Source: Dehalococcoidia bacterium (GTDB lineage Bacteria; Chloroflexota; Dehalococcoidia; Lucifugimonadales; GCA-2712585). From it: DNA of 64,000 bases. The stretch's first letter is position 1. Each line of letters opens with the position of its first letter. Shown here piece after piece: positions 7,976 through 59,800 of the stretch. Where the stretch lies: NCBI GenBank assembly GCA_965208725.1, contig CBDBPI010000002.1:1706878-1770877 (forward strand), written 5' to 3'. Below the pieces are notes generated by a model. That model made no database searches and was not told the origin of the DNA. It saw only the letters and a list, made by a program, of their open reading frames with translations. Both the position numbers and the translations under genes were made by a program.

Positions 7976-8545
7976 ATGGCAACCATGAACTTTGGAGACC
8001 TCCGAAAAGGACTGGCCATCGAAATAGACGGCCAGCCCTACGAGGTTGTCGATTACACCCGACACAAGATGCAGCAGCGCGCCCCCGTGACCCGCGTAAG
8101 GGTCAAGAACCTCCTCAGCGGCAGCGTCACCGAAAAGACCTTCCAAGCCTACGAGACCTCCTTCACCCCCGCCGACGTCGACAGCGCCGACGCCCAGTAC
8201 CTCTACTACGACGGCGAATTCTATAACTTCATGGACATGGAGACCTACGACCAACATCAACTTACCCAGGATCAGCTGGGCGACGGCCTCAATTACCTGA
8301 AGGAAGAGATAACCCTGGAGATTTCCTTCTACAAGGGCGCCATCATCGGCGTCAAGCTACCCACCTTCGTCGACCTCGTCGTCACCTACAGCCCCCCCGG
8401 CCTCCGCGGCGACACTGCCCAGGGAGGCACCAAGCCCGCCACCCTGGAAACCGGCCACACCCTCAACGTCCCCCTCTTCGTCAACGAAGGCCAGACCATC
8501 AAGGTGGACACCCGCAACGGCCAGTACGTCGAGCGCGTGACTTAG
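7976..8545 (+). CDS. efp: Elongation factor P
   Basis: 189 aa. 'FGDLRKGLAIEIDGQPYEVVDYTRHKMQQRAPVTRVRVKNLLSG' is a typical EF-P domain I. Sits in the conserved aroQ-pepP-efp arrangement. Confidence 0.95.
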   Translation: MATMNFGDLRKGLAIEIDGQPYEVVDYTRHKMQQRAPVTRVRVKNLLSGSVTEKTFQAYETSFTPADVDSADAQYLYYDGEFYNFMDMETYDQHQLTQDQLGDGLNYLKEEITLEISFYKGAIIGVKLPTFVDLVVTYSPPGLRGDTAQGGTKPATLETGHTLNVPLFVNEGQTIKVDTRNGQYVERVT

Positions 8546-9794: not shown

Positions 9795-10043
9795 ATGTCA
9801 AACGACGAACAGCAGTTGAACTTTGAAGAAGCCTTCCAGCGCCTGGAGGAGCTTGTGCACACCCTTGAGGAAGGCAAACTCTCCCTGGAAGACACCCGCC
9901 GCCTCTACGAGGAGGGCATGGGCCTCGCCAGGCAATGCAACCGGATGCTCAACGCCACCGAACTCCGCATAACCGAGCTGCGCGATTCCTTCATGGAGGA
10001 AATGTCCGAATCTGAATCAGAAAACGATGAACAGCTTCCTTAA
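9795..10043 (+). CDS. xseB: Exodeoxyribonuclease VII small subunit
   Basis: 82 aa. 'LNFEEAFQRLEELVHTLEEGKLSLEDTRRLYEEGMGLARQC' is the XseB helical hairpin. Lies immediately after xseA. Confidence 0.85.
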   Translation: MSNDEQQLNFEEAFQRLEELVHTLEEGKLSLEDTRRLYEEGMGLARQCNRMLNATELRITELRDSFMEEMSESESENDEQLP

Positions 10044-10692
10044 AGCCGACCTTCACGTTCACACCTGCTACTCCCACGACTCCACCGCCCCCCTCCAGTC
10101 CATCATCAACCGCTGCATCCAAACCGGCATCAACTGCCTGGCCATCACCGACCACAACACCGCGGAGGGCGCCCTGTTGCTCAAGGGTGATGCGCCAATC
10201 CACATCATCGTCGGCGAAGAGGTTAAGTCCTCAGAGGGAGACATCATCGGCCTCTTCCTCAAAGAGACCATCCCCCAGGACCTGACCCCGCAGCAGACAG
10301 TACGAGAAATCAAGTCCCAGGGTGGCCTCGTCATGGTCCCCCACCCCTTCGACCGGGTACGCCACTCCGCCCTTGGCCTTGAGGCCTTCCAATCTATTGC
10401 CCACGACGTCGACATAGTCGAGACCTTCAACGCCCGCAACTTCTTCAACGCCGACGACGCCCAAGCCGACGAAATCGCCCGCAGCCACCACATCGTCCGC
10501 GCCGCCGCCAGCGACGGCCACGCCTCCGTCGAACTCGGCCGCACCTACAACCTCATCCGCACCTTCATCGACACTCCCCAGGACTTCCTCCAGGGCCTCT
10601 CCCAGGCCCAACTCGTCACCAGGCGTACCCGTATGCTCCACCGCATGGCCCCGACAATAGCCAAGGCCCGCAAGTATTTCTCCCGCCGGTGA
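10027..10692 (+). CDS. PHP-domain metal-dependent phosphoesterase
   Basis: 221 aa. 'KADLHVHTCYSHDS', 'LAITDHN' and 'MVPHPFD' are PHP motifs. Overlaps the xseB end by 17 nt. Confidence 0.7.
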   Translation: MNSFLKADLHVHTCYSHDSTAPLQSIINRCIQTGINCLAITDHNTAEGALLLKGDAPIHIIVGEEVKSSEGDIIGLFLKETIPQDLTPQQTVREIKSQGGLVMVPHPFDRVRHSALGLEAFQSIAHDVDIVETFNARNFFNADDAQADEIARSHHIVRAAASDGHASVELGRTYNLIRTFIDTPQDFLQGLSQAQLVTRRTRMLHRMAPTIAKARKYFSRR

Positions 10693-15610: not shown

Positions 15611-16390
15611 TCCTGAAATCGTCTCTGCAACACAAACGCCCCCATCGGGCGCAACTATCTATTCTAGACTACCCCGTCACCCCCATCAACGAAAGCAGAC
15701 CCACCGCCCACCCAATTCCCCTCCCACCCGCTCATCCTGAGCCTGTCGAAGGACGAAGGGACGAGCCTCCTTTCCCATTAACCCGTAGGGGCGACCGGCT
15801 GGTCGCCCTTCCCCCGCCGCCGGTCCCCTCTTCACCCTCTCTCATCCTGGAGACCTTTGAACAACCGTCATTCCGGCGAAAGCCGGAATCCAGAAATGCG
15901 CGATTTAGCTATAACTAGGGCAGGACAACTCCACAATCTGAACCTGTTTCGGCAGTTACGCAAAGCTCTCCGTCCTGGGAGAAGGTTGGGCTGAGGGTCG
16001 CCTCATGCCTCTTCCCCCTTGACGGCGGAAGATTGAGATGGGGGTGATTCCCTCACCAAACATCAATCCCCTGTAGGGAAGAGGGCGGGTTTGAAACCCG
16101 CCCTCTTCCCCCTCCACCCACACCGTACCCGTAGGGTCGGCTCGTCAATCCCCCACCCCCGCGAAAGCGGGGCCCACTCGTCACCAACCACCAAACCCCT
16201 CTCTCCACACCCAACCCCAAATTTGCCGCAACGCAGTTGCCGCCACCCTCGCGAAGGCGGGGGCCTACTCTCCACCGGCCACCAAACCCCCCAACCCACA
16301 CCCAACACTGCAGACTTAGCCGCAACGCAGTGACCCCTCTATCCCCATCCGCCGCCTTGGTGATAAACTGATGCACAAATCATCCCTAAG
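15611..16390. repeat. Intergenic mosaic of hairpin repeat modules, including the 119-bp element copy 2 (15854..15972)
   Basis: In order: CGCTCATCCTGAGCCTGTCGAAGGA (15729), GGGCGACCGGCTGGTCGCCC (15788), the 119-bp element (15854..15972), CTTCCCCCTTGACGGCGGAAGATTGAGATGGGGGTGA (~16012), GGGCGGGTTTGAAACCCGCCC (16083), CCCCCGCGAAAGCGGGGCCCACTC (~16155), GCAACGCAGTTGC (~16225), CGCGAAGGCGGGGGCCTACTC (~16250), GCAACGCAGTGACC (~16322). Confidence 0.85.
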
Positions 16391-16401: not shown

Positions 16402-16848
16402 GTGCCCTTGGCCACAGGCGACAAAGCCCCCGATTTCACCCTCTCAGACACCGATGGACAGGACGTTTCTCTCAGCAGCTTCCAGGGAAAGCAGAAAGTC
16501 CTCCTCGTCTTCTATTGCCGCAACAACACCCCCGGTTGAAACCGCCAGCTCCAGGCCCTGCGGGACGACAGGGCCGAATTCGACGCAGCCAACGCGGCAA
16601 TCCTCGCCGTCAACCCCGCCTCCGTGAAGTCGCACCAGAACTACAAGGCAAAGTTCGACCTCCCCTTCCCCCTCCTGTCCGACGCCGACCGCGCCGTTTC
16701 CAACGCCTACGACGCCGTCAAGGCCAACGGCAAGAGCATCCAGCGCTCCGTCCTCATCATCGATACAGACGGCGTCATACGCTACCTGAAGCGCGGCATG
16801 CCCAAGGACGCCGAACTTCTCGAAGTCCTCAACGGCCTCGATTCCTAG
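16402..16848 (+). CDS. Bcp-type peroxiredoxin with an in-frame UGA (selenocysteine candidate) at the peroxidatic position
   Basis: GTG at 16402, 7 nt after TAAGGAGG. Translation: VPLATGDKAPDFTLSDTDGQDVSLSSFQGKQKVLLVFYCRNNTPG-TGA(16537..16539)-NRQLQALRDDRAEF...PFPLLSDADRAVSNAY. The same frame continues into track ORF 16624..16848. The TGA sits exactly where AhpC/TSA-Bcp proteins carry the T-P-G-C catalytic Cys. Confidence 0.75.
16554..16575 (+). promoter_or_regulatory. Candidate bacterial SECIS hairpin for the peroxiredoxin UGA
   Basis: GGCCCUG-CGGGACGA-CAGGGCC: 7-bp perfect stem with an 8-nt G-rich loop. It begins 17 nt after the U of the UGA at 16537. Confidence 0.45.
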
Positions 16849-36026: not shown

Positions 36027-37169
36027 GTGAAACTTACCCACGGCCTCATCAGCGCCGACGACCGCGTCCAGGAGACCCCCGAAACCTGGACCGCCTACAT
36101 CTCCGCCCAAAAGTGGGGCGACCGGATCCCCCACATCGAAGAGCGTGACGATGGCTCCCAGTTCTGGGTCGTCGCCGGCCAGCCCCTCGCCGACCGCCCC
36201 CTCGCCGACGCTGGCGCCCTCATGCCCGACCGTAACCAACTTCCCAAACGCTGGGAAGATGTGCCTGCCGCCGCCTATGACCCCGCCCTACGACTCCTCG
36301 CCATGGACGCCGACGGCGTCGACGCCCAGGCCCTCTACCCCAGCATGTCCGGCGGCTCCGGCGAAGTCCTCGGCGCAATCTCAGACCCCGAACTCCAGCT
36401 AGCGAGCGTCCAGGCCTACAACAACTGGCTCATCGACGCATGGGCAAAGCAAAGCCCCCGCTTCATCCCCCAGTGCCTCGTCCCCATCAACGACCCCAAC
36501 GCAGCAGCCACCGAAGCCGCCCGCGCCATCAACCTCGGACACCGCGGCGTCATCCTCCCCGGGACCCCTTGGGACCTCCAGAACGTTCCCCACATCAACG
36601 ACGACGCTTGGGATCCCCTCTGGAACGTCTGCCAGGACTGTGAAGTCCCCGTCTGCTTCAACTCCGGCGCAACCCAGAAGCTCCGACTCCAGGCCTGGGA
36701 CAACTTCTCCCCCGTCCTCACCGACGCCATCAACGCCATCACCGGCCCCGTCAGCAGCGTCCCCATCCTCGCCAACCTCCTCTTCTCCCGCATCCTCACC
36801 CGCTTCCCCACCCTCAAATTCGTCCTCTCCGACACCTCCCTCGCCTGGGGCGCCTACCTCGTCGAGACCGCCGACCACCAATTCGAACGACAGCGGCTCC
36901 ACCGCGAAGGCTACGCCCTCAAACCCTCCGAGCTCTTCCGACGCCAGTGCTACATGACCGGATGGTACGACCGCGCTGGACTCCAGGTCAGAAGTTACCT
37001 CGGCGTCGAAAACATCCTCTGGCAGACAAACTTCCCCCGCGCCACCTCCACCTGGCCCAACACCCGCCAATACATCCAACGCAGCTTCGCCGACATCCCC
37101 GACGCCGAACGCCAGCAGATCCTCACCACCAACCCCTCCACCCTCTACCACCTCTTAGAGGATGTCTAA
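36027..37169 (+). CDS. Amidohydrolase-2 family metal-dependent hydrolase (3' end remodelled by IS insertion)
   Basis: 380 aa with a GTG start. '[19 protein letters not shown]', '[11 protein letters not shown]' and '[13 protein letters not shown]'. The last three codons and the stop (E-D-V-*) are supplied by the IS left end, which begins at 37158. Confidence 0.75.
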
Positions 37170-38028
37170 AAAGCATTGGAGTTAGCCAATCGTCGTAGCA
37201 TCAAACCAGTCATAGCGGCGTAGACCCATGCTTCTGTGGTCTGGGGCAACTCCTCATAGTCCTTGCTCAGGCGACGATATCGGCCCAACCAGGCAAAGGT
37301 ACGCTCCACAACCCAACGGCGTGGAAGCACCTCGAAGGTGTGTTGACCGGATGGACGCCGCACTAGTTCCAAGTTCCATCCACATATCTTTCGCGTCCAC
37401 TCCACCAGTTTGCCTGCGTAAGCCCCATCAGCCCAGATTCGCTTCAACCGAGGAAACCGGCCTACCAAACCCATCAGCGCCCACCTGGCTCCGTCTCTAT
37501 CCTGGATGTTGGCCGGATGTACCACCACTGTCAACAACAATCCTGTAGTGTCTACTACGATGTGTCGCTTTCTTCCACAGACCTTCTTACCAGCGTCATA
37601 GCCACGAGGCCCCCTTTTTCCGTGGTCTTCACCGTTTGGCTGTCTATGATGGCCCCGCTCGGACTGGCAGACCGTCCCTCATCCAGCCGTAAACGTTCCC
37701 GTAGCGCTTCATGTATCCGCTCCAGGGTCCCATCTCTTCGCCATGTGCGAAAATAGTGGAACGTGATGCGCCACGGGGGCAGGTCGTGAGGGAGCATCCG
37801 CCATGCGCATCCGGTGCGCAACACATAACGAATTCCGTTCATTACCTCCCTGCGCGGGTAATTGATTGGGCGGCCCGTTGATTTCGGGGGAGGCAACAAC
37901 GGTTCCAGCATTTGCCATTCTTTGTCACTCAGGTCGCTTGGATATCTCTCTCTGCTCATGGAACACTACTTTAGGTGCTCCCTTATCTACTATCCTACGA
38001 CTTCCAATGACAGTTTTTAGACACTTTC
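37158..38028 (-). mobile_element. IS5-family (IS427-group-like) insertion sequence, 871 bp, apparently intact
   Basis: Imperfect terminal inverted repeats GAGGATGTCTAAAAA (37158..37172) and GAAAGTGTCTAAAAA (revcomp of 38014..38028). Flanked by a TA/TA direct repeat (37156-57 and 38029-30). Carries two overlapping transposase ORFs. Confidence 0.85.
37166..37959 (-). CDS. IS5-family DDE transposase, orfA (37555..37959) plus orfB (37166..~37625) joined by a -1 frameshift
   Basis: orfA reads '...[14 protein letters not shown]' and then runs out of frame. The -1 frame continues '[42 protein letters not shown]...ADGAYAG...[20 protein letters not shown]'. The shift site is the A5G run GAAAAAGGGGG (about 37613-37623 on the minus strand). 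Confidence 0.85.
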
Positions 38029-38328
38029 TAACTCCCAACGGACCAATTGTAACCTTACTATAGGGCGACAAAATGCGTGTGGAGCACCCAGAATACAGGG
38101 CACTACGGAGCGTGATCATAACCATTATGATTGCCCTTTGTTCCGATGTTACATTGGTATATTTCTGTGGAAGATTTAATCATTGGCACCTTGAACCGAT
38201 AAGAGTCGCCAGACTCAATCTAACCTATTCCTCAAAATGGCCTTTTCAAAATATCTCCCAAGCATCCAGTCACTAGCCACTCAACACTATCGGCCTAGGT
38301 CCAAGTCCACGATAATTCTGGGGAATCA

Positions 38329-38925
38329 CTAGAGTGACTGAGATCGACCGATGGCAATTGCCCCAACCTCTGACCAGTCTGGGTATTTGACACGGAGCGC
38401 AGTCAAAGAAGGTGAATCGCCACCGATGCCAACTGGACAAGCCGCTAAGCCAAGTGCCGTCGCAACCAAGGACGCCGTAGCCAAGAACGCGCCTGCGTCA
38501 CGCAGTATGAGTGACATCCCACCAACATAACTGCCTAGGGTTCGTTTCAGTTCAGCAACGAGACATATGACCGCGGGCGGTGGTTGATCCGTTGCAAGAG
38601 CTGTTTGTGCCCGTACTGCCACCTCCAATGCAATGTTGCTACTTTCAAGGAGTACACTGAGGCGACAAAGGATTGGATCGAACCAGTATAGCCCTGGAAC
38701 TAAACCACGAACGTTAAGTGCCGCAATAACCAATTCAATTGGGTGCCGCGCACCCGCAGAAGGTGAAGGGCGGCTACTTGCTATCTGCCCATTTTCCATA
38801 AACCAGGCAAAACGACAGCGGGCCGCATGTGTCATTAGTGCAAGGAGATCAGACCTACTCGGCGAGTCAAACCTGCGAACTGATTGTCGCCTCTGAAGTA
38901 CGGTAGCAAAGCCCACGTCAGGCAT
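38329..38925 (-). CDS. SagB-type dehydrogenase / nitroreductase-fold flavoprotein
   Basis: 198 aa. 'RRQSVRRF', 'SRPSPSAGARHPIELV', 'GLYWFDP' and 'LILRDAGAFLATASLVATALGLAACPVG' match the SagB/ThcOx-type nitroreductase pattern. No strong SD. GC is about 55%. Confidence 0.7.
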   Translation of the reverse strand: MPDVGFATVLQRRQSVRRFDSPSRSDLLALMTHAARCRFAWFMENGQIASSRPSPSAGARHPIELVIAALNVRGLVPGLYWFDPILCRLSVLLESSNIALEVAVRAQTALATDQPPPAVICLVAELKRTLGSYVGGMSLILRDAGAFLATASLVATALGLAACPVGIGGDSPSLTALRVKYPDWSEVGAIAIGRSQSL

Positions 38926-39217
38926 TTTGCAAATACTACTTCGAGGTAATAACTTTCCAAAACTTTTGGTTTCGTTACTGGCTATCGGGCTAGTTCCGTG
39001 GGGTCTAACATTTGAAATCTCAAACTATGATGCCAATGTTGTGGCAGTGGGACAACCCAGTGGTTGTATCTCAGAATACTGCGAAATTTTTTCAACAAAA
39101 TCGCGAAAATTTGATACTACGTCGCCATCCGTAATCCAACGAGATCCACTGCGAGTTTCAATCAAACATTCATTCTCGCCGATCCAGACTGCATACCCGT
39201 TCACTGACAATGCCGCT

Positions 39218-39799
39218 CTAAATCTTCTCAAACGTATCCGCGCGTTTAGTGCAGCCTCTACATTGACCGCATGCAAGATTGGCAACGTGGCACGAGTGAG
39301 TCCAAGATAGAAGAGAAAGTGGTATTCCAGAGTCATTCACAAGATCAAGGGATGTCTTGTACAAACCTGGTGCTGTCACTCGTATTCCGCCTTCTTGCAT
39401 CATCATTAAAGTACTCAATGCCTCAATGAACCCGGGCGTACCGTCGGCATGTAGGCTGTCTGTCAGAACCGTCCCAACCAGAATTTCTTTAACCCCCAAC
39501 TTCAATGCGACGGGTGCTGCCAACGTCATCAACAGCTGATTGCGGTACGGCCACCACTCAGAAGTTGGAGCATGTGGCGCCGCTTCAATCCCCGCCAGAT
39601 CACCGCTTCCGATTGTCGAACAATCTATTCCTATAAATTCAAGAGGGATCCCAAGCCGCGTGGCAACGGCATTTGCAGCCCTCCACTCTCCTTCAGCAGG
39701 TAGTTGACCGTAGTCCACAAAAATTGCGAGTTGTGGGCGCTCAACAAACGCTATCGCAGAGGAGTCCACTCCACCTGACAAAAGAATCGCTTGCTTCAT
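39218..39799 (-). CDS. QueC-like PP-loop ATPase (7-cyano-7-deazaguanine synthase family)
   Basis: Track ORF 39218..39814. I prefer the ATG at 39799, which forms an ATGA overlap with the upstream stop. 'MKQAILLSGGVDSSAIAF' is the SGGxDS PP-loop, and the C-terminal 'SCHVANLACGQCRGCTKR' is the QueC zinc-cysteine cluster. GC is about 43-48%. Confidence 0.8.
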   Translation of the reverse strand: MKQAILLSGGVDSSAIAFVERPQLAIFVDYGQLPAEGEWRAANAVATRLGIPLEFIGIDCSTIGSGDLAGIEAAPHAPTSEWWPYRNQLLMTLAAPVALKLGVKEILVGTVLTDSLHADGTPGFIEALSTLMMMQEGGIRVTAPGLYKTSLDLVNDSGIPLSLLSWTHSCHVANLACGQCRGCTKRADTFEKI

Positions 39800-40986
39800 C
39801 TGAGTCCGGCCCACACTGCATTGTATGCTGCCTGAGCAAGGCTAGAATAAATTGGTATATCTGTGCCGATTAACATTGTAAAATCGGTGCTCTCGGGTCG
39901 TTCAGTAAGCCCAACGACAGGAATATTCTTAGCCTTAGCGTACCCGACTTCAAATAGTGTCCCCGGGTCCTCCCCATCTAAAAGGGCCAGAACTGCGCTG
40001 CATTCTTCCAAGCCTCGCAAGTCCGCTGGTGCCACCTTACTTGGTTCACCTTTTCCTACATCGTGAAGTGGTGAGAACACTTCCACTCCTAGATCTTTAA
40101 GGCAATCACGCACTTGGTCAACGAGCCATCTCTCACCGTAGCTAAAGAAGGGTCCAGCCAAATAGATCTTCACGTCTCTCCCCCACGCACATTCCACATC
40201 CGATTTCGGCAAGACTACATCGCCACGCTTTGTGACGACCTGTAAGGGCCCTCTCGAACACCAAGTTGCTGTACCTTTGGAAGCCTGCTGTGCTGAATAC
40301 AGTGGATCCTCTCCTCTTTCAGCCCAATACCATGCAAAAAGCGCACTGTAGACGTCACCCGAACCAATTGGCCACACTTCCACTGTTGGGTAAGGCTCGA
40401 TGAAGGAGGTTCCAGAATCATCAACGAGGAAGGCGCCAAGCGGTCCGCACTTTGCAATTACTATTTCAGCAGAGTACTTGCTCCTAACTTGTTCAGCAGC
40501 TTCGGCCACGGGCCGAGATGGAGATTCACAAAGCCCCAGAATCTCTCTATGGTTTCCAACAATGGCTAGTCTTTCAGCACTCCACTCAAAATGCCCCTCC
40601 AAATCTTCAAGCCCTGGGCTTTGAGGGTCAATCACAAGACTCACCGCCTTTACAACGGGCCTTGCTTCAACCATTCCGAAAGTCAATATCGAATCGGCCT
40701 CAACATTCAAGCATACTTTCTGGTTGTCGGATCCACTGTAATCGTGCATCGGCCTACTAACTGGGGTATCGTACATAAAGCAAATAGGCTGAGGTCTTTC
40801 TATGCATTCTAATGCTATACCCTTAGCTCTGACTATTGCAGCAGCTTCCTCATTCACTGCAGAGTGTAGTTTTGGAGGCGAGTGTACGTTGGAGAGTGCG
40901 TATGCTGCTCGTGCTCCCGATCCGAAGAGGTCACTGTATGAGGGATCACGACAGATCTCATGATACACTCCACCAACTACAATCAC
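39796..40986 (-). CDS. Fusion protein: PfkB-like (ribokinase-fold) kinase domain + nucleoside 2-deoxyribosyltransferase-like domain
   Basis: 396 aa. The N-terminal ~260 aa read 'MIVVGGVYHEI...GSGARAAYALS...VIAKCGPLGAFLV...WPIGSGDVYSALFAWYWAE' (PfkB GxGD anion-hole motif). The C-terminal ~125 aa read 'VKIYLAGPFFSYGERW...SPLHD...LDGEDPGTLFEVGYAKAKNIPVVG' (NDT-type Rossmann-like fold with the conserved Glu). GTG start in a GTGA overlap with the upstream gene. Confidence 0.7.
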   Translation of the reverse strand: MIVVGGVYHEICRDPSYSDLFGSGARAAYALSNVHSPPKLHSAVNEEAAAIVRAKGIALECIERPQPICFMYDTPVSRPMHDYSGSDNQKVCLNVEADSILTFGMVEARPVVKAVSLVIDPQSPGLEDLEGHFEWSAERLAIVGNHREILGLCESPSRPVAEAAEQVRSKYSAEIVIAKCGPLGAFLVDDSGTSFIEPYPTVEVWPIGSGDVYSALFAWYWAERGEDPLYSAQQASKGTATWCSRGPLQVVTKRGDVVLPKSDVECAWGRDVKIYLAGPFFSYGERWLVDQVRDCLKDLGVEVFSPLHDVGKGEPSKVAPADLRGLEECSAVLALLDGEDPGTLFEVGYAKAKNIPVVGLTERPESTDFTMLIGTDIPIYSSLAQAAYNAVWAGLR

Positions 40987-41324
40987 GCTGGTTTGACCTC
41001 AACCCGTACTATGCCGTCGTCAATTTCGCAAACCTCCGCACAATATTCTGTCCCCATTTGAAGACAATAAATCAAATCGTCTATTCGTTCCACAATAGCC
41101 CCAACTTGCTCATCGTCCAGTTGAACGACAACGCGTTGTACTGGCTCTCTTTCAAGACATACCTCCAACTGCAGTCCTATGCTGAGACGTTTCACCATTG
41201 CCTCAACGGGCGACGCAAGATTAGTCTGGAATTGAAGTTCATCACAGTTAGTGGTTTGGCTACCAATAGCAAACGGGCCACCAGTCCCGATCCATCTAGA
41301 CGGACCACCACCAGAACCAGACAT
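40983..41324 (-). CDS. Hypothetical 113-aa protein, first gene of the QueC-like operon
   Basis: ATG at 41324, 4 nt after GGGAGG. Gly-rich N-terminus 'MSGSGGGPSRWIGTGGP'. The beta-rich C-terminal part, 'LEVCLEREPVQRVVVQLDDEQVGAIVERIDDLIYCLQMGTEYCAEVCEIDDGIVRVEV', loosely resembles a HIRAN-like small barrel. No confident family assignment. Confidence 0.5.
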   Translation of the reverse strand: MSGSGGGPSRWIGTGGPFAIGSQTTNCDELQFQTNLASPVEAMVKRLSIGLQLEVCLEREPVQRVVVQLDDEQVGAIVERIDDLIYCLQMGTEYCAEVCEIDDGIVRVEVKPA

Positions 41325-41472
41325 TCTACCTCCCAGTTATTGTGTGTCAGTTAAGCCAATCAATGCGATCTGCAAATATCTTATCATACTTCCAAAATAG
41401 GCGGCTCCTCCCCCTCCCCCACTCCCAGAATTTCCTCTATAATCCCCACATCTTAAACCGCAGGAGCCTCCC

Positions 41473-43110
41473 ATGCCCCTCATGACCGGCGGCAAAGCCG
41501 TCGTCGAGTGCCTCAAAGCCCACGACGTCGACACCATCTTCGGCATCATCTCCACCCACACCATGCACATCTACGACGCCCTCTATCATGAGCAGGGCAA
41601 CATCCGCTTCATCGGCGGCCGACACGAACACGCCCTCGGCTTCATGGCCGACGGCTACTCCCGCGTCACCGGCAAGCCCGGCATCATGTTCACCAGCGGC
41701 GGCCCCGGCGCCGCCGACAGCATGGGCTCCATGGGCGAGGCCTACCACGCCTCCTCCAAGCTCCTCCAGGTCACCGCCAACGCCGAACAGGACCTCATCG
41801 ACTCCGGCAAGGGCGCCATCCATGAAGCCAAGGACCAGCTCGGCATGTTCCGCTCCGTCACCGGCTGGAACGCCCTCATCGACAACCTCGAAGCCATGCC
41901 CGACTACTTCCTCGAAGCCTTCCAGCGCTTCGAATCCGGCAGACCCCGACCCATCGAGCTAGAAGTCCCCACAGACCTCTTCGACAAACAGGCCGATATT
42001 GAAGTCATCCCGCCCCGCGACGCGGCCACCCCTGCCCCCGACCCCGTCGCCATCGAAAATGCCGTCATCGCCCTCAAAAACGCCCGGCGACCCATCATCT
42101 GGGTCGGACGCGGCGTCATGCTCGCCGACGCCACCGACGAACTCCGTCAGCTTGCCGAAAACCTCGGTGCTCCCGTCACCTGCGCCACCACCGGCAAGGG
42201 CGCTTTCCCCGACGACCACCCCCTCGGCCTCGGCGTCGGCGAATTCGGCGGCATCCGCGGCGACAGCCCCCTAGGCGACTTCCTCGACAACGCCGACCTG
42301 CTCCTAATCATCGGCTCCACCATGGCCTACCACCGCACCATACAGCAGGGACTCACCCTCCCCAAAAACATCGTCCAGATAGACGCCGACCCCGCCGAAA
42401 TCGGCAAGAACTACCCCGCTTCCATTGGCATCGTCGGAGACGCCAAGGTCGCCCTCCAGCAGATAATCACCCAGCTGGAGTCCAAGCCCAAAGCCACCCA
42501 GGCCGGCTACTCCAGGGAAATCGCCGACCTAAAGAAAGGCATCCACCAGAGCCTTGTCGACCAATACCCCAACGAAACGAGGACCCTTGAAGGCATCCGC
42601 AGCGTCCTGGACCGCGACGCCATCGTTGTCGGCGACGCCACCGTCCCCAACTACCGCGCCTCCCGCTGCATGCCCTTCTACGAACCCAACACCTACATCG
42701 GCCCCAACTCATGGGCCGGACTCGGCTTCGGCTTCCCCGCCGGACTCGGCGCGAAAGTCGGCCAGCCCGACAAACAGGTCGTCGTCATCACAGGCGACGG
42801 CGGCTTCCAGTACAACATCCAGGAACTCGGCACCGCCCTCCAGTACGGCATCAGCCCCGTCGTCCTCGTCTTCAACGACAACGCCTGGGGCGTCCTCAAG
42901 GGCGTTCAGAAGGAAACTTTCGAAGGACGCTACATCGGCACAGAACTCCGCAACCCCGACTTCATCAAGCTCGCTGAAGCCTACGGAGCCCCCGCTACCC
43001 GCGTCCACAACCTCGACGAACTCACCACCACCCTCGCTGACGCCCTCACCGGCAACACCCTTCACCTCATCGAAGTCGCCACCCCCCACGGCTTCCCCGC
43101 CTTCCGCTAA
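41473..43110 (+). CDS. Thiamine-pyrophosphate enzyme (acetolactate synthase large-subunit-like)
   Basis: 545 aa. N-terminal Pyr domain 'GGKAVVECLKAHDVDTIFGIISTHTMHIYDAL', with 'GPGAADSMGSMGEAY'. TPP-binding motif 'GDGGFQYNIQELGTALQYGISPVVLVFNDNAWG'. High GC, unlike both flanks. Confidence 0.85.
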   Translation: MPLMTGGKAVVECLKAHDVDTIFGIISTHTMHIYDALYHEQGNIRFIGGRHEHALGFMADGYSRVTGKPGIMFTSGGPGAADSMGSMGEAYHASSKLLQVTANAEQDLIDSGKGAIHEAKDQLGMFRSVTGWNALIDNLEAMPDYFLEAFQRFESGRPRPIELEVPTDLFDKQADIEVIPPRDAATPAPDPVAIENAVIALKNARRPIIWVGRGVMLADATDELRQLAENLGAPVTCATTGKGAFPDDHPLGLGVGEFGGIRGDSPLGDFLDNADLLLIIGSTMAYHRTIQQGLTLPKNIVQIDADPAEIGKNYPASIGIVGDAKVALQQIITQLESKPKATQAGYSREIADLKKGIHQSLVDQYPNETRTLEGIRSVLDRDAIVVGDATVPNYRASRCMPFYEPNTYIGPNSWAGLGFGFPAGLGAKVGQPDKQVVVITGDGGFQYNIQELGTALQYGISPVVLVFNDNAWGVLKGVQKETFEGRYIGTELRNPDFIKLAEAYGAPATRVHNLDELTTTLADALTGNTLHLIEVATPHGFPAFR

Positions 43111-43116
43111 CCCCCT

Positions 43117-43854
43117 CTACGTAGGGAACATGTCGTACAGCATTGGGAACGTGCGCCTAAAGTAGGCGTTCACAAAGCTGGAGAATGGCCTATCCGGTGA
43201 AATAAATTCGAGGGCTACACCAATCATTTCACTGTCGGCTCGATTCTTAAGTCTATTCTTCAGCATGGCCAGATGCCTAAGCCGACGATTGCGAACGTTT
43301 CGTGGATCATTCTCACCAAAATAACTGTCGTTCAGGTCTAGATCTCTAATCATTCTGAACGATGTTGACCACTCTTCACTATTAACCCGCCTTGCAGGTT
43401 GAATTTCACCCGTATCCACATCGAAGTCAAAATAATCATGAGCTGAACGTTGCCCCTGCTGAAAATTTGGATCCACGTATCGATCTACCGGAATATACCG
43501 AGCATATCCCACGTTTAACACCTGATTAACTTGATCAGCAGATTCAGGCCACTGGCCACCCTTTGCATCGTTGCATTGTTTGCAGCAGTAGACTAAGTTT
43601 TGCCAGTCGAAAGAGAGTGCAGGGAATTTCCTGCGAGGCCGAAAGTGATCGATCGTCTCTTCATCGCGAGAGTTTCCACTTCTTGTAGGAGGCTCGCACG
43701 ATTTTTCGCAATACCCACAAATCCCCTTGAAGTCATCAGAGAGTCCGCGGCGCATGCGGGCACGGTCGCGGAAGTCCAAGTCACTCCACTCTTTTCCATC
43801 ACGTCGCAGTTGGGCCAAGTGCATTGGCTCATTCGAGCGTTGTACCGAATGCAA
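43117..43854 (-). CDS. ptuB: HNH endonuclease, Septu PtuB-like
   Basis: 245 aa. 'CGYCEKSC...ETIDHFRPRRKFP...NLVYCCKQCNDAKG' is the HNH core. It begins 2 nt after the stop of the ATPase gene (TTG at 43854; an alternative ATG lies at 43824). Low GC. Confidence 0.65.
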   Translation of the reverse strand: MHSVQRSNEPMHLAQLRRDGKEWSDLDFRDRARMRRGLSDDFKGICGYCEKSCEPPTRSGNSRDEETIDHFRPRRKFPALSFDWQNLVYCCKQCNDAKGGQWPESADQVNQVLNVGYARYIPVDRYVDPNFQQGQRSAHDYFDFDVDTGEIQPARRVNSEEWSTSFRMIRDLDLNDSYFGENDPRNVRNRRLRHLAMLKNRLKNRADSEMIGVALEFISPDRPFSSFVNAYFRRTFPMLYDMFPT

Positions 43855-43856
43855 AC

Positions 43857-45169
43857 CTAGCCGCTATCCTGGTCGAGGCTCTGTCTTTCCTGGTACCTCT
43901 GCAAGGCTTCAGCAAACTGATGCTCGAACTCCTCTTGCTGTGCCTCCTCCGGTCCACCCGCAAGCAACTCCCGATTCACTCGTTGCCGAAGTCCCTGCAT
44001 CCGCCGTTGACGCTTCTCCTCCTCACGCCCATCGTCCAGCGGCTCCTGGTCACGTAGTCGTCGCAACTCCTTAGCCGCCTTTGCAGTCTCATTATCCGTG
44101 GGGTCTGTAACTCCCATCATCGTCCTCAGAATCTCATCCATTGTCCACCCAACAATATCCTCACTACTGGTTGTGGCCGTAACTCTACCCTCGTCCCTAC
44201 TCATCAGATGCACCTGCCCAGCCCTAAGCCCGGCCACAACGAATGGCGAGTGGGTTGTCGCAAAAATCTGCAGGTTGGGAAAATACTCCGGCGCCTGGAG
44301 TGTCGATAAAACCCGCCGTTGCCACTTTGGATGAAGATGATTCTCTATCTCATCAATCAGCAATATCGCAGGTTTCTTTTCCCAACCCTCTTTCCAACCG
44401 TAATGATTAGCCATCTTTAACGCGAGCGCGTAAATCCATAGAAGCGTCCCCTGTGTTCCTGAACTTAGCGCACCCATATAGACGGACTCTCCACCCTCTT
44501 CGTCGCTGGTCTCAAAGCCCATGTTTGCATGTGGAATCCTGCCAGGCTCAAGATACGTATGCGGACCTACACCGAGAATGACCTCTGTACATATTCTCCT
44601 GACAACAGCATGTACTAAGGCCAAAACCCTATCGATCTCGAACTGCACAGATGGCCTTTCTGCCATCAATTTCCTGTATGCGTCAACGGCTACAACTACA
44701 TCTGTGCCATTGAATATCCCCGGATCGGTTTCGAAGATAAAGTCAAGTGGAAATTTCCTAGCCTCTATAGACCTCTTCCACAGTGGCATTGCAAGCCCAA
44801 TTTCAGGGTTAATCGGCAAGTTTATTCTGGTAGCAGGAATGCTGAGAATCGGAACCCTGCTCATAGTCGTCTCGCTGCAAGCTTTGTGGACGTCACCAAG
44901 CCCGATCTCGCAATTGGAGCAGTCATCGCTCAGAGTTATCAGACATTCCGGCTCCTTATCATCGCCAAAGTCCTCAAACTTCATCTCCTCTAGTATCGGA
45001 TGCAAAGGGTTTTTCTCATTCCGGGAATAGGCATATTCCATAGCTCTCAGGATCGTCTCTTCCCCGAAGCGTTAGGACCAATCAACAAGTTGACCCGCTT
45101 GTCGCAATCCAGAGAGATTTCTGTGGAAATTGGAGGAATGTCTCTAATCAGAATTTTCTCAATATACAT
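43857..45169 (-). pseudogene. ptuA: ABC/AAA_15-type ATPase, Septu PtuA-like, frameshifted immediately after the Walker A lysine
   Basis: The ATG at 45169 opens 'MYIEKILIRDIPPISTEISLDCDKRVNLLIGPNASGK-RRS*'. The 394-aa track ORF (43857..45041) continues in another frame as '(T)ILRAMEYAYSRNE...'. One nucleotide appears to be missing at about 45056-45057; the expected reading is GPNASGK-S-TILRAMEY. Downstream, 'ILLIDEIENHLHP' is the Walker B/D-loop and 'IFATTHSPFV' the H-loop. Confidence 0.65.
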
Positions 45170-52969: not shown

Positions 52970-55018
52970 ATGCCCAACCGACTCGCCAACGAGACCAGCC
53001 CCTATCTCCTCCAGCACGCCAACAACCCCGTCGACTGGTTCCCCTGGGGCCCCGAAGCCCTCGAAAAAGCCCGCTCGGAAGACAAGCCCATCCTCCTCAG
53101 CGTCGGCTACTCCGCCTGCCACTGGTGCCACGTCATGGAGCGCGAGTCCTTCGAAAACCAGGCCATCGCCCGCCTCATGAATCGCAGTTTCGTCAACATC
53201 AAGGTCGACCGCGAAGAACGCCCCGACATCGACGGCATTTACATGCAGGCCGTCCAGGCCATCACCGGTCAGGGCGGCTGGCCCATGACCGTCTTCCTCA
53301 CCCCCGATGGCGAACCCTTCTACGGCGGCACCTACTTCCCGCCGGAAGACCGCGGCCCCATGCCCGGCTTCCCCCGCATCCTCCTCACCATGGACCAGAT
53401 CTACCGCACCCGCCGCTCTGAGGTCACCAAAGCCTCCACAGAAATCGTCAACCGCCTCAAACAGACCAGCCAAATGAAGTCCGAGGCTAGCCTCCTCTCT
53501 CCCGACATCCTCAACGAAGCCTTCCTCCACATGGCCGCCGGCTTCGACGCTCAGAACGGCGGCTTCGGCGGCGCTCCCAAGTTCCCCCAGCCCATGAACT
53601 TCGACTTCCTCCTCCGCTACCACGACGCCACCGGCAACGAAGAGGCCCTCCACATCGTCAACCTCTCCCTCGAAAAAATGGCCCTCGGCGGCATGTACGA
53701 CCAGCTTGGCGGCGGCTTCCACCGCTACTCAACCGACAGCTACTGGCTCGTGCCCCACTTCGAGAAGATGCTCTACGATAACGCCCTCCTCAGCCGCCTC
53801 TACCTCCACGCCCACCTCGCCACCGGCCACGACCTCTATCTGCGAATCGTCCAGGAGACCCTCGACTACGTCCTCCGCGAAATGACCTCCCCCGAAGGCG
53901 GTTTCTACTCCAGCCAGGACGCCGACAGCGAAGGTGAGGAAGGCAAATTCTTCATCTGGTCCCCCGATGAAATCCGCGCCGCCCTCGGCGACCGGGACGC
54001 TGATATCTTCTGCGCCTACTACGACGTTTCAGACCAGGGCAACTTCGAAGGCAAGACAATCCTGAACGTGCCCATCGGCGCCGAAGAAGTCATCGACCGC
54101 CTCGACATCGAACCCGAAGACCTCGAAGACGCCCTACAACGCGGCAAGTCCGCTCTCCTCCCCGTCCGCAACGCCCGCATCGCCCCCGACCGCGACAACA
54201 AAATCCTCACTGCCTGGAACGGCCTCATGCTCCGCAGCTTCGCCGAGGCTGCCGCCTCCCTCCAGCGCGACGACTATTACGACGCCGCAGTCAACAACGC
54301 CCGCTTCATCACCGAAAACCTCCAGTCCAACGGACGCCTCCTCCGCACCTGGAAGGACGGCCAGGCCCGACTCAACGGCTACCTCGAAGACTACAGCTTC
54401 CTCGCCGACGGTCTCCTCGCCGTCTACGAGCTTACCCTGGATGACCACTGGCTGAACGAAGTCCAGCGACTCACCGACGATATGCTCGACCTCTTCTGGG
54501 ACCCCAACGAAGAAATCTTCTACGACACCGGCACAGACCACGAGACCCTTCTAGTTCGCCCCCGCGACGTCTTCGACAACGCCACCCCCTGCGGTTCCTC
54601 CGTCGCCGCCGACGTTCTTCTCCGCATGGCCCTCCTCACCGGCAACGAAAGCTATCGAAACGTCGCCACAGCCGCCCTCCGCGGCCTCGGTCCAATGCTC
54701 TCCCAGTACGCCAACGGCATGGGACGCTGGCTCGCCGCCCTCGGCTTCCACGTGGGCCAGCCCAAGGAAATCGCCATCGTCGGCGACCTCAACTCCGACG
54801 CCGCCCAAGACCTCCTCGACGAAATCCACCTCCGCTACCTCCCCAACCGCGTCCTCGCCGCCTCCGAGCACGGCGACCCCGCCGGCTCCCACCCCTTCCC
54901 CCTCCTCCGCCATAAGACCCTCATCGAAGGCCAACCCGCCGCATACGTCTGCCGCAACTACGCCTGTAACCTCCCAGTCACCACCCCCCAATCCCTCGCC
55001 ACCCAACTCAACACCTAA
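52970..55018 (+). CDS. Thioredoxin-domain protein (DUF255 / YyaL-like) with a six-hairpin glycosidase-like C-domain
   Basis: 682 aa. '[55 protein letters not shown]' is the canonical DUF255 N-terminus with CxxC. Confidence 0.85.
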
Positions 55019-57231: not shown

Positions 57232-57561
57232 CTGAGCCGAGGAATCTCCCCTCCACCTACACTCCGTAGGGGCGACCGGCCGGTCGCCCTTCCCCTCTTA
57301 TCCCTTCCACCTCAACGGGCAAAGAGCGAGGCGGGGATGATCGCTCCAAGGAGATGTAGGGGAGACCCTTCTGGTAGCCCGCTTCTTTCTCGTCCTCTAC
57401 GCTATGCAGGGGCGGGTTTGAAACCCGCCCTCCCCTCTCTTTTTCCTGCGAAGGCAGGAACCAATTCCCTACCCGCATCCAACTGTCCCCCACCACCCCT
57501 TGACTCTCCCCCAATTCCCCCTAAACTTCACATCATCTCCCCCCCAAAAGGAGCCTCCCCC

Positions 57562-57825
57562 ATGCCCGACCCCAACAAACACGCCATCGAAATCGAATAC
57601 TGCCACGACTGAGGCCACGCCCTCCGCGCCGCCTGGATGGCCGGCGACACCCTCAACCGCATCGGCGACCGCATCTCCTCCTTCACCCTCATCCCCGGCG
57701 GCCACGGCAAGTTCGACGTCCGCATTGACGGCCAGCTCGTCGCCGAGCATCGACACGAACCCAACGCCCACATCTTCCCCGACCTCCAGGACCTCCTCAA
57801 AGCCTTCGACCAACGCGCCAACTGA
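57562..57825 (+). CDS. SelW/Rdx-family redox protein with a C-x-x-U motif (selenocysteine candidate)
   Basis: ATG at 57562, after AAAGGAG. Translation: MPDPNKHAIEIEYCHD-TGA(57610..57612)-GHALRAAWMAGDTLNRIGDRISSFTLIPGGHGKFDVRIDGQLV... The same frame runs into track ORF 57637..57825. 'IEYCxxC/U...RAAWMA' is the Rdx-family signature. Confidence 0.75.
57627..57646 (+). promoter_or_regulatory. Candidate bacterial SECIS hairpin for the SelW-like UGA
   Basis: CGCCG-CC-UGGAU-GG-(C)-CGGCG: a 7-bp stem with a one-nt bulge and a G-containing 5-nt loop. It begins 17 nt after the U of the UGA at 57610, the same spacing as in the peroxiredoxin gene. Confidence 0.4.
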
Positions 57826-57849: not shown

Positions 57850-59103
57850 ATGACCACCAACGACAACGTACAATCCCCCGTCGCCGTCCGCCCCCAAGAC
57901 TACCCCCGAGGCCAAATCCTCGCCTCCTCCGCCGACGAAGCCCGCAAGTCCACCCAGGGCCGACGCCTAGTCCGTGAGCGCGTCCTCTCCCTCGGCAAGG
58001 ACGCCATCTACAACATGACCGGCCTCGTCCGCGCCTTCCCCCTCGACCCCGAAGACCTCCCCACCCTCGAGAACCAGTTCACCTACTACACCCACTTCCT
58101 TGGTCGTGCCGAGGCCATGGCCGTCGAATTCGTCGGCGCCAACCCCCGCGACCACCAGGCCGTCATGTGCAACCGCGTCACCTCCGCCATGCTCGCCATC
58201 ATGCTCGGAACCCTCAATCGCGGCGACGCAATCATCTCCCTCGTCGGCAAAGGACGCTCCCACCCCTCCGTCCAGCAGGCCGTCGAGCTCGTCGGCGCCG
58301 ACTTCATCGAAGTCGAATCCATCGAAGCCCTCGAAGATGCACTCCCCCTCCGACCCTGGAAGATGCTCGTCGTCACCCCCCTGACTCCCTCCAAGCACCA
58401 CGTCCCCGCCGACCAGGTCGCCCACGCCATACGGCTGGCCAAGGAGCGCGACATGCTCGTGTTCCTCGACGACGCCCACATGATGTCCCGCACCATCTTC
58501 TTCGACGAACCCCCCACCTTCCAACTTGGCGACGTCGACCTCTCCGTCTGGTCCCTCGACAAGCACGTCCCCGGCCCCCGAGGCGCCGCCATCGTCGGAC
58601 GCAACGACCTCATGGAGCAGGTCTCTGCCCAGGCCTTCCAGTTCGGCCTCGAAGCCCAGTCCGGCCACTACGTCGCAATGGTCCGCGGCATGGAAGCCTT
58701 CGATCCCGAGCCCGTCAAGCGCGCCTCCGCCCTCGCCCGCACCCTCCACAAAAAATTCCAGGCCCGCTTCGGCCCCACCGTCTACCAGGCCGGCCCCGGC
58801 GTCGCCCTCACCGCCGAAGACTTCACCGAAGTGGTCTTCAATCACGCCGGGACCCGCGAAACAACCCTCGCCCCCTCCGAAGTCTCCGTCACCGCCAGTT
58901 TCCTCCTCCTCAAGAACTACGGCGTCATCACCATCCCCATCACCGGCTACCCCGGCGCTGCCCCCACCTTCCGACTTATGATGCACCCCGACGGCGAACG
59001 ATTCGGCGTCGACCCCCTCGTCCACGCCGTCCAGGACACCATCGAACGAACCGCCACCCTCCTCCAAAACCCCAACGCCGTCCGCACCCTCCTCCTCGGC
59101 TAA
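57850..59103 (+). CDS. PLP-dependent fold-type-I enzyme, SelA-like family
   Basis: 417 aa. 'VWSLDKHVPGPRGAAIVG' parallels the SelA 'SGDKLLGGPQAGIIVG' PLP-lysine segment, and 'LVFLDDAH' parallels the upstream Asp region. It lacks the SelA N-terminal tRNA-binding domain, so it is not called selA. Confidence 0.5.
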   Translation: MTTNDNVQSPVAVRPQDYPRGQILASSADEARKSTQGRRLVRERVLSLGKDAIYNMTGLVRAFPLDPEDLPTLENQFTYYTHFLGRAEAMAVEFVGANPRDHQAVMCNRVTSAMLAIMLGTLNRGDAIISLVGKGRSHPSVQQAVELVGADFIEVESIEALEDALPLRPWKMLVVTPLTPSKHHVPADQVAHAIRLAKERDMLVFLDDAHMMSRTIFFDEPPTFQLGDVDLSVWSLDKHVPGPRGAAIVGRNDLMEQVSAQAFQFGLEAQSGHYVAMVRGMEAFDPEPVKRASALARTLHKKFQARFGPTVYQAGPGVALTAEDFTEVVFNHAGTRETTLAPSEVSVTASFLLLKNYGVITIPITGYPGAAPTFRLMMHPDGERFGVDPLVHAVQDTIERTATLLQNPNAVRTLLLG

Positions 59104-59800
59104 CCCCCTTACTAACCGCTCATCCTGAGCCTGTCGAAGGACAAGGGCTAGCGGTTGGTTCGTGTTTCGTCTCCCCCGCGAAAGCAGGACCCCATGGCTG
59201 GGCTGTGAAATAGATTTCGTCATTCCTGCGAAAGCAGGAACCCACGGCGGGGTGGTGGACGGGTGGTCCCTTCCCCTCTTAGCCCTTCCCCCTTGACGGG
59301 GGAAGGTTCGGATGGGGGTGATTTCCTCGCTCGCCCTCCGCTCATCCGTAGAGGCGGGTTTGAAACCCGCCCTCTTCATACCTCAACCCACACCTGACTC
59401 GTAGGGGCGGCTCGCGAGCCGCCCGCCCCACACACGATGCGCTCATCCTGAGCCTGTCGAAGGACGAGCGCCCCCTAATTCGTTATTCCTGCGAAAGCAG
59501 GAACCTACGGCAATGCGGTTGCTGGGCGGTCCTCTCTCCCTCTTATTCCTTCTCCCGTCCTGGGAGAAGGTTAGGGTGAGGATATCCCACCCTCCCCTCT
59601 TAATCCCCACCCCCGCGAACGCGGGGGCCCACTCTCTACCCACACTCAACCTGTAAGGGCGACGGCCGGTCGCCCTCCTTTCCTGTAGAGGGACCCCAAC
59701 ACCCTCACCCCTCCTCCCCTTCCCTCTCCTTCGTGCATGTATAATTCCCATCAGTGCCCTCCCGCGTTGCGACAAATCGCGATGGCCCAAAGGGAAAGAA
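59104..59800. repeat. Densest mosaic of hairpin repeat modules (at least 11 modules from 8 families in ~600 bp)
   Basis: In order: CGCTCATCCTGAGCCTGTCGAAGGA (59117); CCCCCGCGAAAGCAGGACCCC (~59172); GTCATTCCTGCGAAAGCAGGAACCCACGGCGG (59216); CTTCCCCCTTGACGGGGGAAGGTTCGGATGGGGGTGA (~59286); CGCTCATCC+GTAGAGGCGGGTTTGAAACCCGCCC (~59339); GTAGGGGCGGCTCGCGAGCCGCCC (~59401); CGCTCATCCTGAGCCTGTCGAAGGA (59440); TTCCTGCGAAAGCAGGAACC (~59486); CTCCCGTCCTGGGAGAAGGTTAGGGTGAGG (~59557); CCCCCGCGAACGCGGGGGCCCACTC (~59610); GTAAGGGCGACGGCCGGTCGCCC (~59653). Confidence 0.85.

Follow-up and report, generated by a model that had tools for sequence, protein, structure and literature searches.

An in-frame UGA codon most likely read as selenocysteine in a SelW-like (Rdx) gene of a Dehalococcoidia bacterium

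We analyzed a stretch of 64,000 nucleotides (the window) on contig CBDBPI010000002.1 of a Dehalococcoidia bacterium, which contains, close to its right end, a small gene of the Rdx (SelW-like) family interrupted by an in-frame UGA at its predicted redox motif. The coordinates of this gene, of a hairpin downstream of the UGA and of the other features discussed here are collected in Table 1. Translation from the upstream ATG gives 16 codons (MPDPNKHAIEIEYCHD), followed by the TGA, and continues in the same frame for another 70 codons (GHALRAAWMAGDTLNRIG…FDQRAN, opening with GHALRAAWMAG…) up to a TGA terminator at 57823 to 57825. The start codon, the AAAGGAG motif preceding it and the internal TGA had been described in an earlier note made from the sequence alone, together with the fact that the mechanical list of open reading frames (ORFs) holds only the shorter form of 62 amino acids, and the sequence confirms all of them. 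The redox region of the read-through product is IEIEYCHD-U-GHALRAAW, in which both the (I/V)xYCxxC/U motif and the RAxW helix characteristic of Rdx proteins are present.

Table 1. Location of the Rdx gene, its signals and other features of the window
Feature	Position	Strand	Remarks
Shine-Dalgarno-like motif AAAGGAG	57547-57553	+	Sequence read directly; 8 nt spacing to the start ATG at 57562
Full coding sequence of the predicted SelW-like/Rdx selenoprotein	57562..57825	+	87 codons plus TGA terminator; predicted selenocysteine (Sec) is codon 17
Cys14 codon (TGC)	57601..57603	+	First residue of CxxU; Cys in 73/74 genes, Tyr in L071
In-frame UGA, predicted Sec17	57610..57612	+	TGA at this codon in 75/76 related loci
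Predicted bacterial selenocysteine insertion sequence (SECIS) hairpin	57627..57646	+	7 bp, bulged C57642, loop UGGAU at 57634-57638; cross-species core 57629-57643
Annotated ORF of 62 amino acids (truncated call)	57637..57825	+	Starts at internal Met26; sole entry in the mechanical ORF list
BCP/PrxQ-like peroxiredoxin	16402..16848	+	UGA 16537-16539 at the peroxidatic Cys; hairpin 16554-16575, offset +17
DUF255/thioredoxin-domain protein	52970-55018	+	Thioredox_DsbH E = 9e-78; upstream of the selenoprotein gene
MJ0158/TIGR03576-like pyridoxal phosphate (PLP) enzyme	57850-59103	+	197 bits, below cut-off; 24 nt past the selenoprotein stop

The assignment to the SelW/Rdx family, also proposed in the earlier note, agrees with the protein profiles. 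With the UGA taken as Cys, the product of 87 amino acids matches Pfam Rdx (PF10262) with 51.1 bits (E = 1.6e-13) over positions 2 to 70 of the 74 in the profile, whereas the annotated ORF reaches 19.4 bits, under the gathering score of 22.6 bits. The 25 extra upstream residues therefore contribute ca. 32 bits. Six bacterial Rdx proteins in the PDB (3DEX, 2FA8, 2OJL, 2P0G, 2OKA, and 2OBK) match at E values from 1e-9 to 2e-6, and their IEYCTQC…RAAW(L/M)A aligns to IEYCHD[U]…RAAWMA, so that the second Cys of CxxC coincides with the UGA, as had been claimed. The 70 residues that follow the UGA served as query in an exhaustive search, which recovered distant full-length relatives that agree with this placement and have CxxC there (P0111, IEYCVPCGY; P0119, KYCLPCGY; P0114 and P0117, both YCTQC), plus one CxxS form (P0120). 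By homology to the solved Rdx structures, the 87-residue product would adopt a thioredoxin-like alpha/beta fold. Incidentally, a one-base mutation has altered the Sec position in some relatives; these include P0103, which has Trp (UGG) there (YCHLW), P0094, in which both redox positions are Arg (YRHDR), and the paralogue at L076.

The GC content of third codon positions (GC3) in the 16 upstream codons is 0.81 in frame, whereas the two alternative frames give 0.56 and 0.31; downstream of the UGA, the in-frame value is 0.91. Confident genes of the window have ca. 0.8, and the overall GC content of the window is 60%. TGA terminates 8 of the 39 confident genes of the window (ca. 20%), the selenoprotein gene included. 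UGA is not reassigned in this window, and since it usually acts as a stop here, any recoding must depend on the local context.

We scanned species-representative genomes for related loci and recovered 76, all of them in metagenome-assembled genomes (MAGs) of Dehalococcoidia/SAR202/Chloroflexota, with tblastn matches that cross the stop position. The homologous codon is TGA in 75 of the 76 and TGT or TGC in none, and the frame (I/L)E(I/L)xYC[HQW][DHP]-U-[GRKS]HA is intact in 72. Codon statistics were calculated for 74 genes (73 loci and the window). For codon positions 1, 2, and 3, the summed entropy is 6.6/4.2/13.8 over the 11 codons before the UGA and 9.6/6.8/25.8 over the 21 codons after it, i.e., there is coding-type constraint, with purifying selection, on both sides. 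Counting from the UGA, the amino acids Glu-7, Ile-6, and Tyr-4 never change and 73 of the 74 genes retain Cys-3, with synonymous variation at each of these codons. A pseudogene, or a sequencing or assembly error in a Cys-form Rdx gene, could in principle look similar, given that one base change makes TGC or TGT into TGA and that a few relatives are clearly decaying: L068 has Cys replaced by Phe and two extra in-frame stops, and L073 is frameshifted just past the hairpin. However, 75 of the 76 assemblies, which are independent and represent different species, share this TGA, and none has a Cys codon instead; together with the selection acting on both flanks and a downstream stem that is conserved and covarying (see below), this rules such an explanation out. 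The earlier note had judged an artefact or pseudogene unlikely; the comparative data effectively refute it and leave it with next to no probability.

The four loci that lack the intact frame are L068, L073, L071, and L076. L071 keeps the UGA and has Tyr for Cys and Leu for Met; L076 (10052 to 10165) is a distant paralogue with Leu at the Sec position (YCAGL). The decay or alteration seen in L068, L073, and L071 (each around 10001 to 10260) suggests occasional gene loss, or else assembly errors in long-read MAGs. In L007, a 94-nt copy with 95% identity (ca. 8224 to 8316) is located 1.76 kb upstream of the intact gene (ca. 10001 to 10261). It spans the ribosome-binding site, the start codon, the first 16 codons, the TGA and about seven further codons, and looks like the remnant of a partial duplication.

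The conservation of the upstream frame also bears on the alternative that the UGA is a true stop, the protein is the 62-residue ORF from Met26, and the 16 upstream codons are an untranslated leader or a separate short ORF followed by re-initiation. Gene callers predict this form, here and in all of the 91 close homologues retrieved from the database, which are 56 to 74 amino acids long, with their start placed either on the internal Met or on another start codon shortly past the stop (one comes from a SAR202 MAG, and several carry the JGI name “predicted Rdx family selenoprotein”). Furthermore, the ATG at 57637 is in frame and is kept in 72 of the 74 genes. Nevertheless, it is replaced by ATT (Ile) in L070 and by CTG (Leu) in L071 and thus cannot be the universal start, and no Shine-Dalgarno-like motif was noted 5' of it, where the GC-rich stem is located. 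In 54 of the 74 genes, an in-frame ATG, GTG, or TTG is found 16 codons 5' of the UGA. Amino acids are conserved, with variable third positions, in the upstream codons as well as in the eight codons between UGA and AUG, and the latter align to RAAW in the helix of the Cys-form structures. A product initiated at Met26 would contain neither the first strand of the Rdx domain nor the redox motif, and its first helix would be incomplete; it scores below the Pfam threshold. According to the earlier note, its proposal would fail if translation began at the downstream Met and the frame upstream were not conserved; what we found is the opposite, and we consider termination at this UGA extremely unlikely.

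The hairpin downstream of the UGA is formed by a 5' arm CGCCGCC, the loop UGGAU and a 3' arm GGCCGGCG, its first base being 17 nt past the U of this codon. RNAalifold, run on 73 aligned sequences (the window and 72 species representatives, from the UGA to +66), independently predicted a stem at columns 21-24/30-33 that closes on the loop UGGAU. The outer pair, 21:33, consists of the third positions of two Ala codons, both synonymous, and is U·A in 35 sequences, C·G in 14, G·C in 6, and unpaired in 18. Twelve of these 18 have a C/C form (the clade of the window plus L033, L040, L041, and L049), which can adopt instead the 7-bp bulged register. The covariation score of the six-pair structure was 0.159, versus 0.061 ± 0.008 in shuffled alignments, and none of 500 shuffles reached the observed value. 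When the 3' partners were slid by one to three columns, all measures dropped, with the −3 and +1 registers still pairing 69% and 63% of cells. On a neighbor-joining tree built with the stem columns excluded, parsimony required at least nine independent switches between Watson-Crick pair types; one such double switch separates L043 (U·A) from L052 (C·G), which are only 9% divergent. The Ala codon at +7 has an invariant C at its third base, which pairs with the G of the AUG, while the other Ala codons have third-position entropies of 1.3 to 1.7. The loop bases U25, G26, G27, and U29 are invariant. The hairpin is, hence, conserved as an RNA structure through compensatory changes at synonymous sites. 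Bacterial SECIS elements, as described in the Sargasso Sea study, lie immediately downstream of the UGA and have a small apical loop containing G (PMC1088965). The 73-sequence alignment amounts to a covariation-supported SECIS model for this clade and could help to find other selenoproteins in it.

A second gene with a UGA at a redox Cys, coding for a peroxiredoxin, is present in the same window (Table 1). The context of its UGA is …VFYCRNNTPG-U-NRQL…, and the protein matches thiol peroxidase/PrxQ families of NCBIfam, all under their cut-offs. The earlier note had invoked this gene as a supporting case, and the metagenomic homologues bear it out: among 80 of them, all distant (≤49% identity), 65 have TGC or TGT as the TPGC codon aligned to the UGA, and one has TGA. 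This makes the UGA of the peroxiredoxin a valid Sec/Cys pair, located where the peroxidatic Cys is expected; the gene is a probable second selenoprotein, and Prx (TxxU) is a known selenoprotein family (PMC2398784). Its hairpin, with −15.5 kcal/mol, is among the most stable 4% of the 39-mers of the window. The equal spacing of the two hairpins, which begin at 57627 and 16554, both at +17, is real, as had been stated.

Some results weigh against the decoding of the UGA of the Rdx gene as Sec. NCBIfam TIGR02174 (CXXU_selWTH) gives 32.6 bits and just misses its cut-off of 34.2, and NF041051 (SelTWH_Campy) gives 38.7 bits versus a cut-off of 88; these two are nonetheless the best NCBIfam matches of what is a slightly divergent subfamily. 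As a single sequence, the 39-nt hairpin segment folds with −12.1 kcal/mol, a stability that 15% of random 39-mers of the window equal, the z-score of the 61-nt fold is not significant (0.18), and an Rfam search of the hairpin region gave no matches to SECIS or any other family. With such unremarkable stability, the argument from matching spacing put forward in the earlier note is weak alone, and it is the covariation across species that carries the case. Even there, the covarying pair is C/C in the clade of the window itself, so that the shifted, bulged register has to be assumed for it. Neither selA, selB, selC, nor selD was found within the window. In tblastn searches of the flanks of the 76 Rdx loci with SelA, SelB, and SelD probes (E. 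coli sequences), no sel gene was identified, and SelD had zero matches in the window and the 76 loci. ARAGORN detected no tRNA-SeC in 1.73 Mb of 156 fetched loci, including those of the closest relatives (L001 to L008). The single call that it made in the window, a tRNA-SeC(tca) at 59345 to 59433 on the minus strand, 1.5 kb from the gene, is a false positive.

In this call, the acceptor stem contains a mismatch as well as three G·U pairs, and the variable region lacks base pairing. A tRNA-Sec should instead have a 13-bp (8/5) acceptor/T branch, or the 12-bp (8/4) one of some Chloroflexi, a structured long variable arm, a match to a tRNA covariance model and the character of a unique, conserved gene. 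There was no match to the Rfam tRNA clan at E ≤ 10, although the same mode detects a genuine tRNA-Ser(gga). The “D” and “T” arms are two dispersed-repeat hairpins, with at least nine other copies each, plus unique spacer, within the intergenic repeat mosaic of 59104 to 59753. Such a call could mislead searches for the Sec machinery. Two protein matches were also discarded: the SelB-like one in L033, next to a tRNA cluster, probably represents a general GTPase of translation, and the SelA-like one in L064 is a DgaE/selA_rel PLP lyase. Selenoproteins and the Sec trait have been reported in sequenced Chloroflexi (PMC1794560), and tRNA-Sec species, some with an atypical 8/4 fold, are also on record for this phylum (PMC5389517).

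The lack of sel genes in the window and in the 76 flanks searched would also fit a different decoding, in which a near-cognate or suppressor tRNA reads the UGA as a standard residue (Trp or Cys) and the hairpin merely promotes read-through. The distant relative with Trp (UGG) at this position points in the same direction, and Acidobacterial tRNAs with novel 8/4 and 9/3 cloverleafs have been proposed as missense or nonsense suppressors (PMC5389517). However, the codon occupies the place of the nucleophile in a CxxC redox motif, the classic Sec/Cys site, and if it were decoded as Cys, the absence of a Cys codon in every close relative would be hard to explain. The position of the hairpin and its small loop containing G fit the features of bacterial SECIS elements (PMC1088965), UGA ends ca. 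20% of the genes here, and a second gene of the window has UGA at a redox Cys. Decoding as a standard residue is, in our judgment, very unlikely. Taking all of this together, we consider it very probable that 57562 to 57825 is a genuine SelW-like (Rdx) selenoprotein gene with a Cys14-x-x-Sec17 motif, its UGA being most likely read as Sec.

With regard to the neighborhood, the MJ0158/TIGR03576-like enzyme encoded just downstream belongs to a SelA-related family of unknown function. A functional link between the two genes as a trait of the family was discarded because the adjacency is confined to the clade of the window (L001 to L009) and is not a family-wide association. The DUF255/thioredoxin-domain gene is found upstream (about 2 to 6 kb) also in L001, L002, L004 to L010, and L012. 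Short GC-rich repeat modules are abundant in many intergenic regions. One repeat hairpin, GGCGGGTTTSAAACCCGCC, has seven copies versus 0.01 expected (at 16084, 26926, 31004, 35977, 57411, 59353, and 61815); the copy at 57411, with a T-rich run behind it, may serve as a terminator for the gene upstream. Between 59104 and 59753, the 650-bp spacer that follows the PLP enzyme gene is a patchwork of such modules, of which over 40 partial matches occur in other parts of the window. Finally, the region from ca. 37166 to 45041 contains ORFs with low GC3 (0.41 to 0.55 versus ca. 0.8 elsewhere), with a gene of typical GC3 (41473 to 43110) among them, and the region lies beside two small ORFs (37166 to 37959) that resemble a transposase split in two. 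This region may be a horizontally acquired island.

If the UGA of the Rdx gene is indeed read as Sec, translation would start at 57562, and the hairpin with loop UGGAU, 14 to 17 nt downstream of the UGA, would act as the SECIS element and bring SelB·GTP·Sec-tRNA(Sec) to the ribosome as the UGA enters the A site, so that codon 17 would be translated as Sec. This is the usual decoding route in bacteria. The resulting protein of 87 amino acids, a thioredoxin-fold thiol/selenol oxidoreductase, would then cycle between the selenolate/thiol pair and a Cys14-Sec17 selenenylsulfide. Our data show an uninterrupted frame constrained on its two sides, the conservation of the UGA in the lineage, its alignment with Cys in homologues and the conservation of the stem, whereas we infer the identity of the inserted residue, the binding of SelB and the redox chemistry. 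A more far-reaching version is that the Dehalococcoidia/SAR202 proteins form a distinct, Sec-only Rdx subfamily to which the near-invariant, His-rich AEHRHEPNAH-IFPDLQDL gives a specialized role, e.g., in metal or selenium handling, perhaps coupled in the clade of the window to the MJ0158/SelA-like PLP enzyme. Were it true, a major lineage of deep-ocean bacteria would depend on selenium more than has been recognized, but we regard this proposal as a whole as doubtful and rather unlikely.

The practical gain is a corrected annotation, since the gene would code for an 87-residue CxxU selenoprotein rather than a 62-residue hypothetical protein, and all of the 91 homologues retrieved are likewise truncated. 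The decoding of UGA as Sec is also implied for the Dehalococcoidia/SAR202 lineage, which bears on the trace-element needs of abundant ocean bacteria. A full-text literature search for SAR202 with selenocysteine returned incidental mentions only, so that the Sec trait seems to have received little discussion for this lineage. The SelW-like CxxU family has been on record since 2005 as the commonest marine prokaryotic selenoprotein family, so the find is correct but ordinary, and general knowledge of selenoproteins is unchanged by this gene.

Among known systems, the vertebrate SelW group (SelW/SELENOW and SelT/SelH/Rdx12) belongs to the same Pfam family, PF10262, and has CxxU near the N-terminus of a small thioredoxin-like protein. 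It differs in low sequence similarity and in a kink-turn SECIS located in the 3' untranslated region and served by SBP2/eEFSec, whereas the hairpin described here is of the bacterial type and lies in the coding region. The SECIS of fdhF in E. coli, used with SelB, is likewise a hairpin of the ORF that follows the UGA directly, and its apical loop, ca. 20 to 25 nt from the UGA, carries conserved G/U; there is no sequence similarity to this element, and here the loop UGGAU comes from Trp-Met codons, with a stem that starts at +17 to +19. The Cys-form Rdx proteins of the PDB (3DEX, SAV_2001; 2FA8, Atu0228; and others) align over residues 2 to 68 and share IEYCxxC…RAAWMAxE and the GxFxV…DG core, but they have CxxC (TQC) and ca. 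105 amino acids, and recoding is not needed. The closest parallel is that of the marine SelW-like proteins described by Zhang, Gladyshev and co-workers, a family already present in the Sargasso Sea selenoproteome of 2005 (PMC1088965) and the most abundant prokaryotic selenoprotein family in the Global Ocean Sampling (GOS) data, with 427 Sec versus 56 Cys forms (PMC2398784). They share with the gene described here the Rdx/SelW domain, CxxU with Sec as the second redox residue (PMC1088965, PMC2398784), a SECIS-type hairpin that follows the UGA closely within the coding region and has a small loop containing G, the large excess of Sec over Cys forms, an origin in uncultured marine bacteria and the truncation by gene callers. 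Unlike them, the Dehalococcoidia/SAR202 subfamily is slightly under the TIGR02174 cut-off, has 0 Cys forms in the 76 genomes sampled and carries a near-invariant C-terminal motif of its own, AEHRHEPNAHIFPDLQDL.

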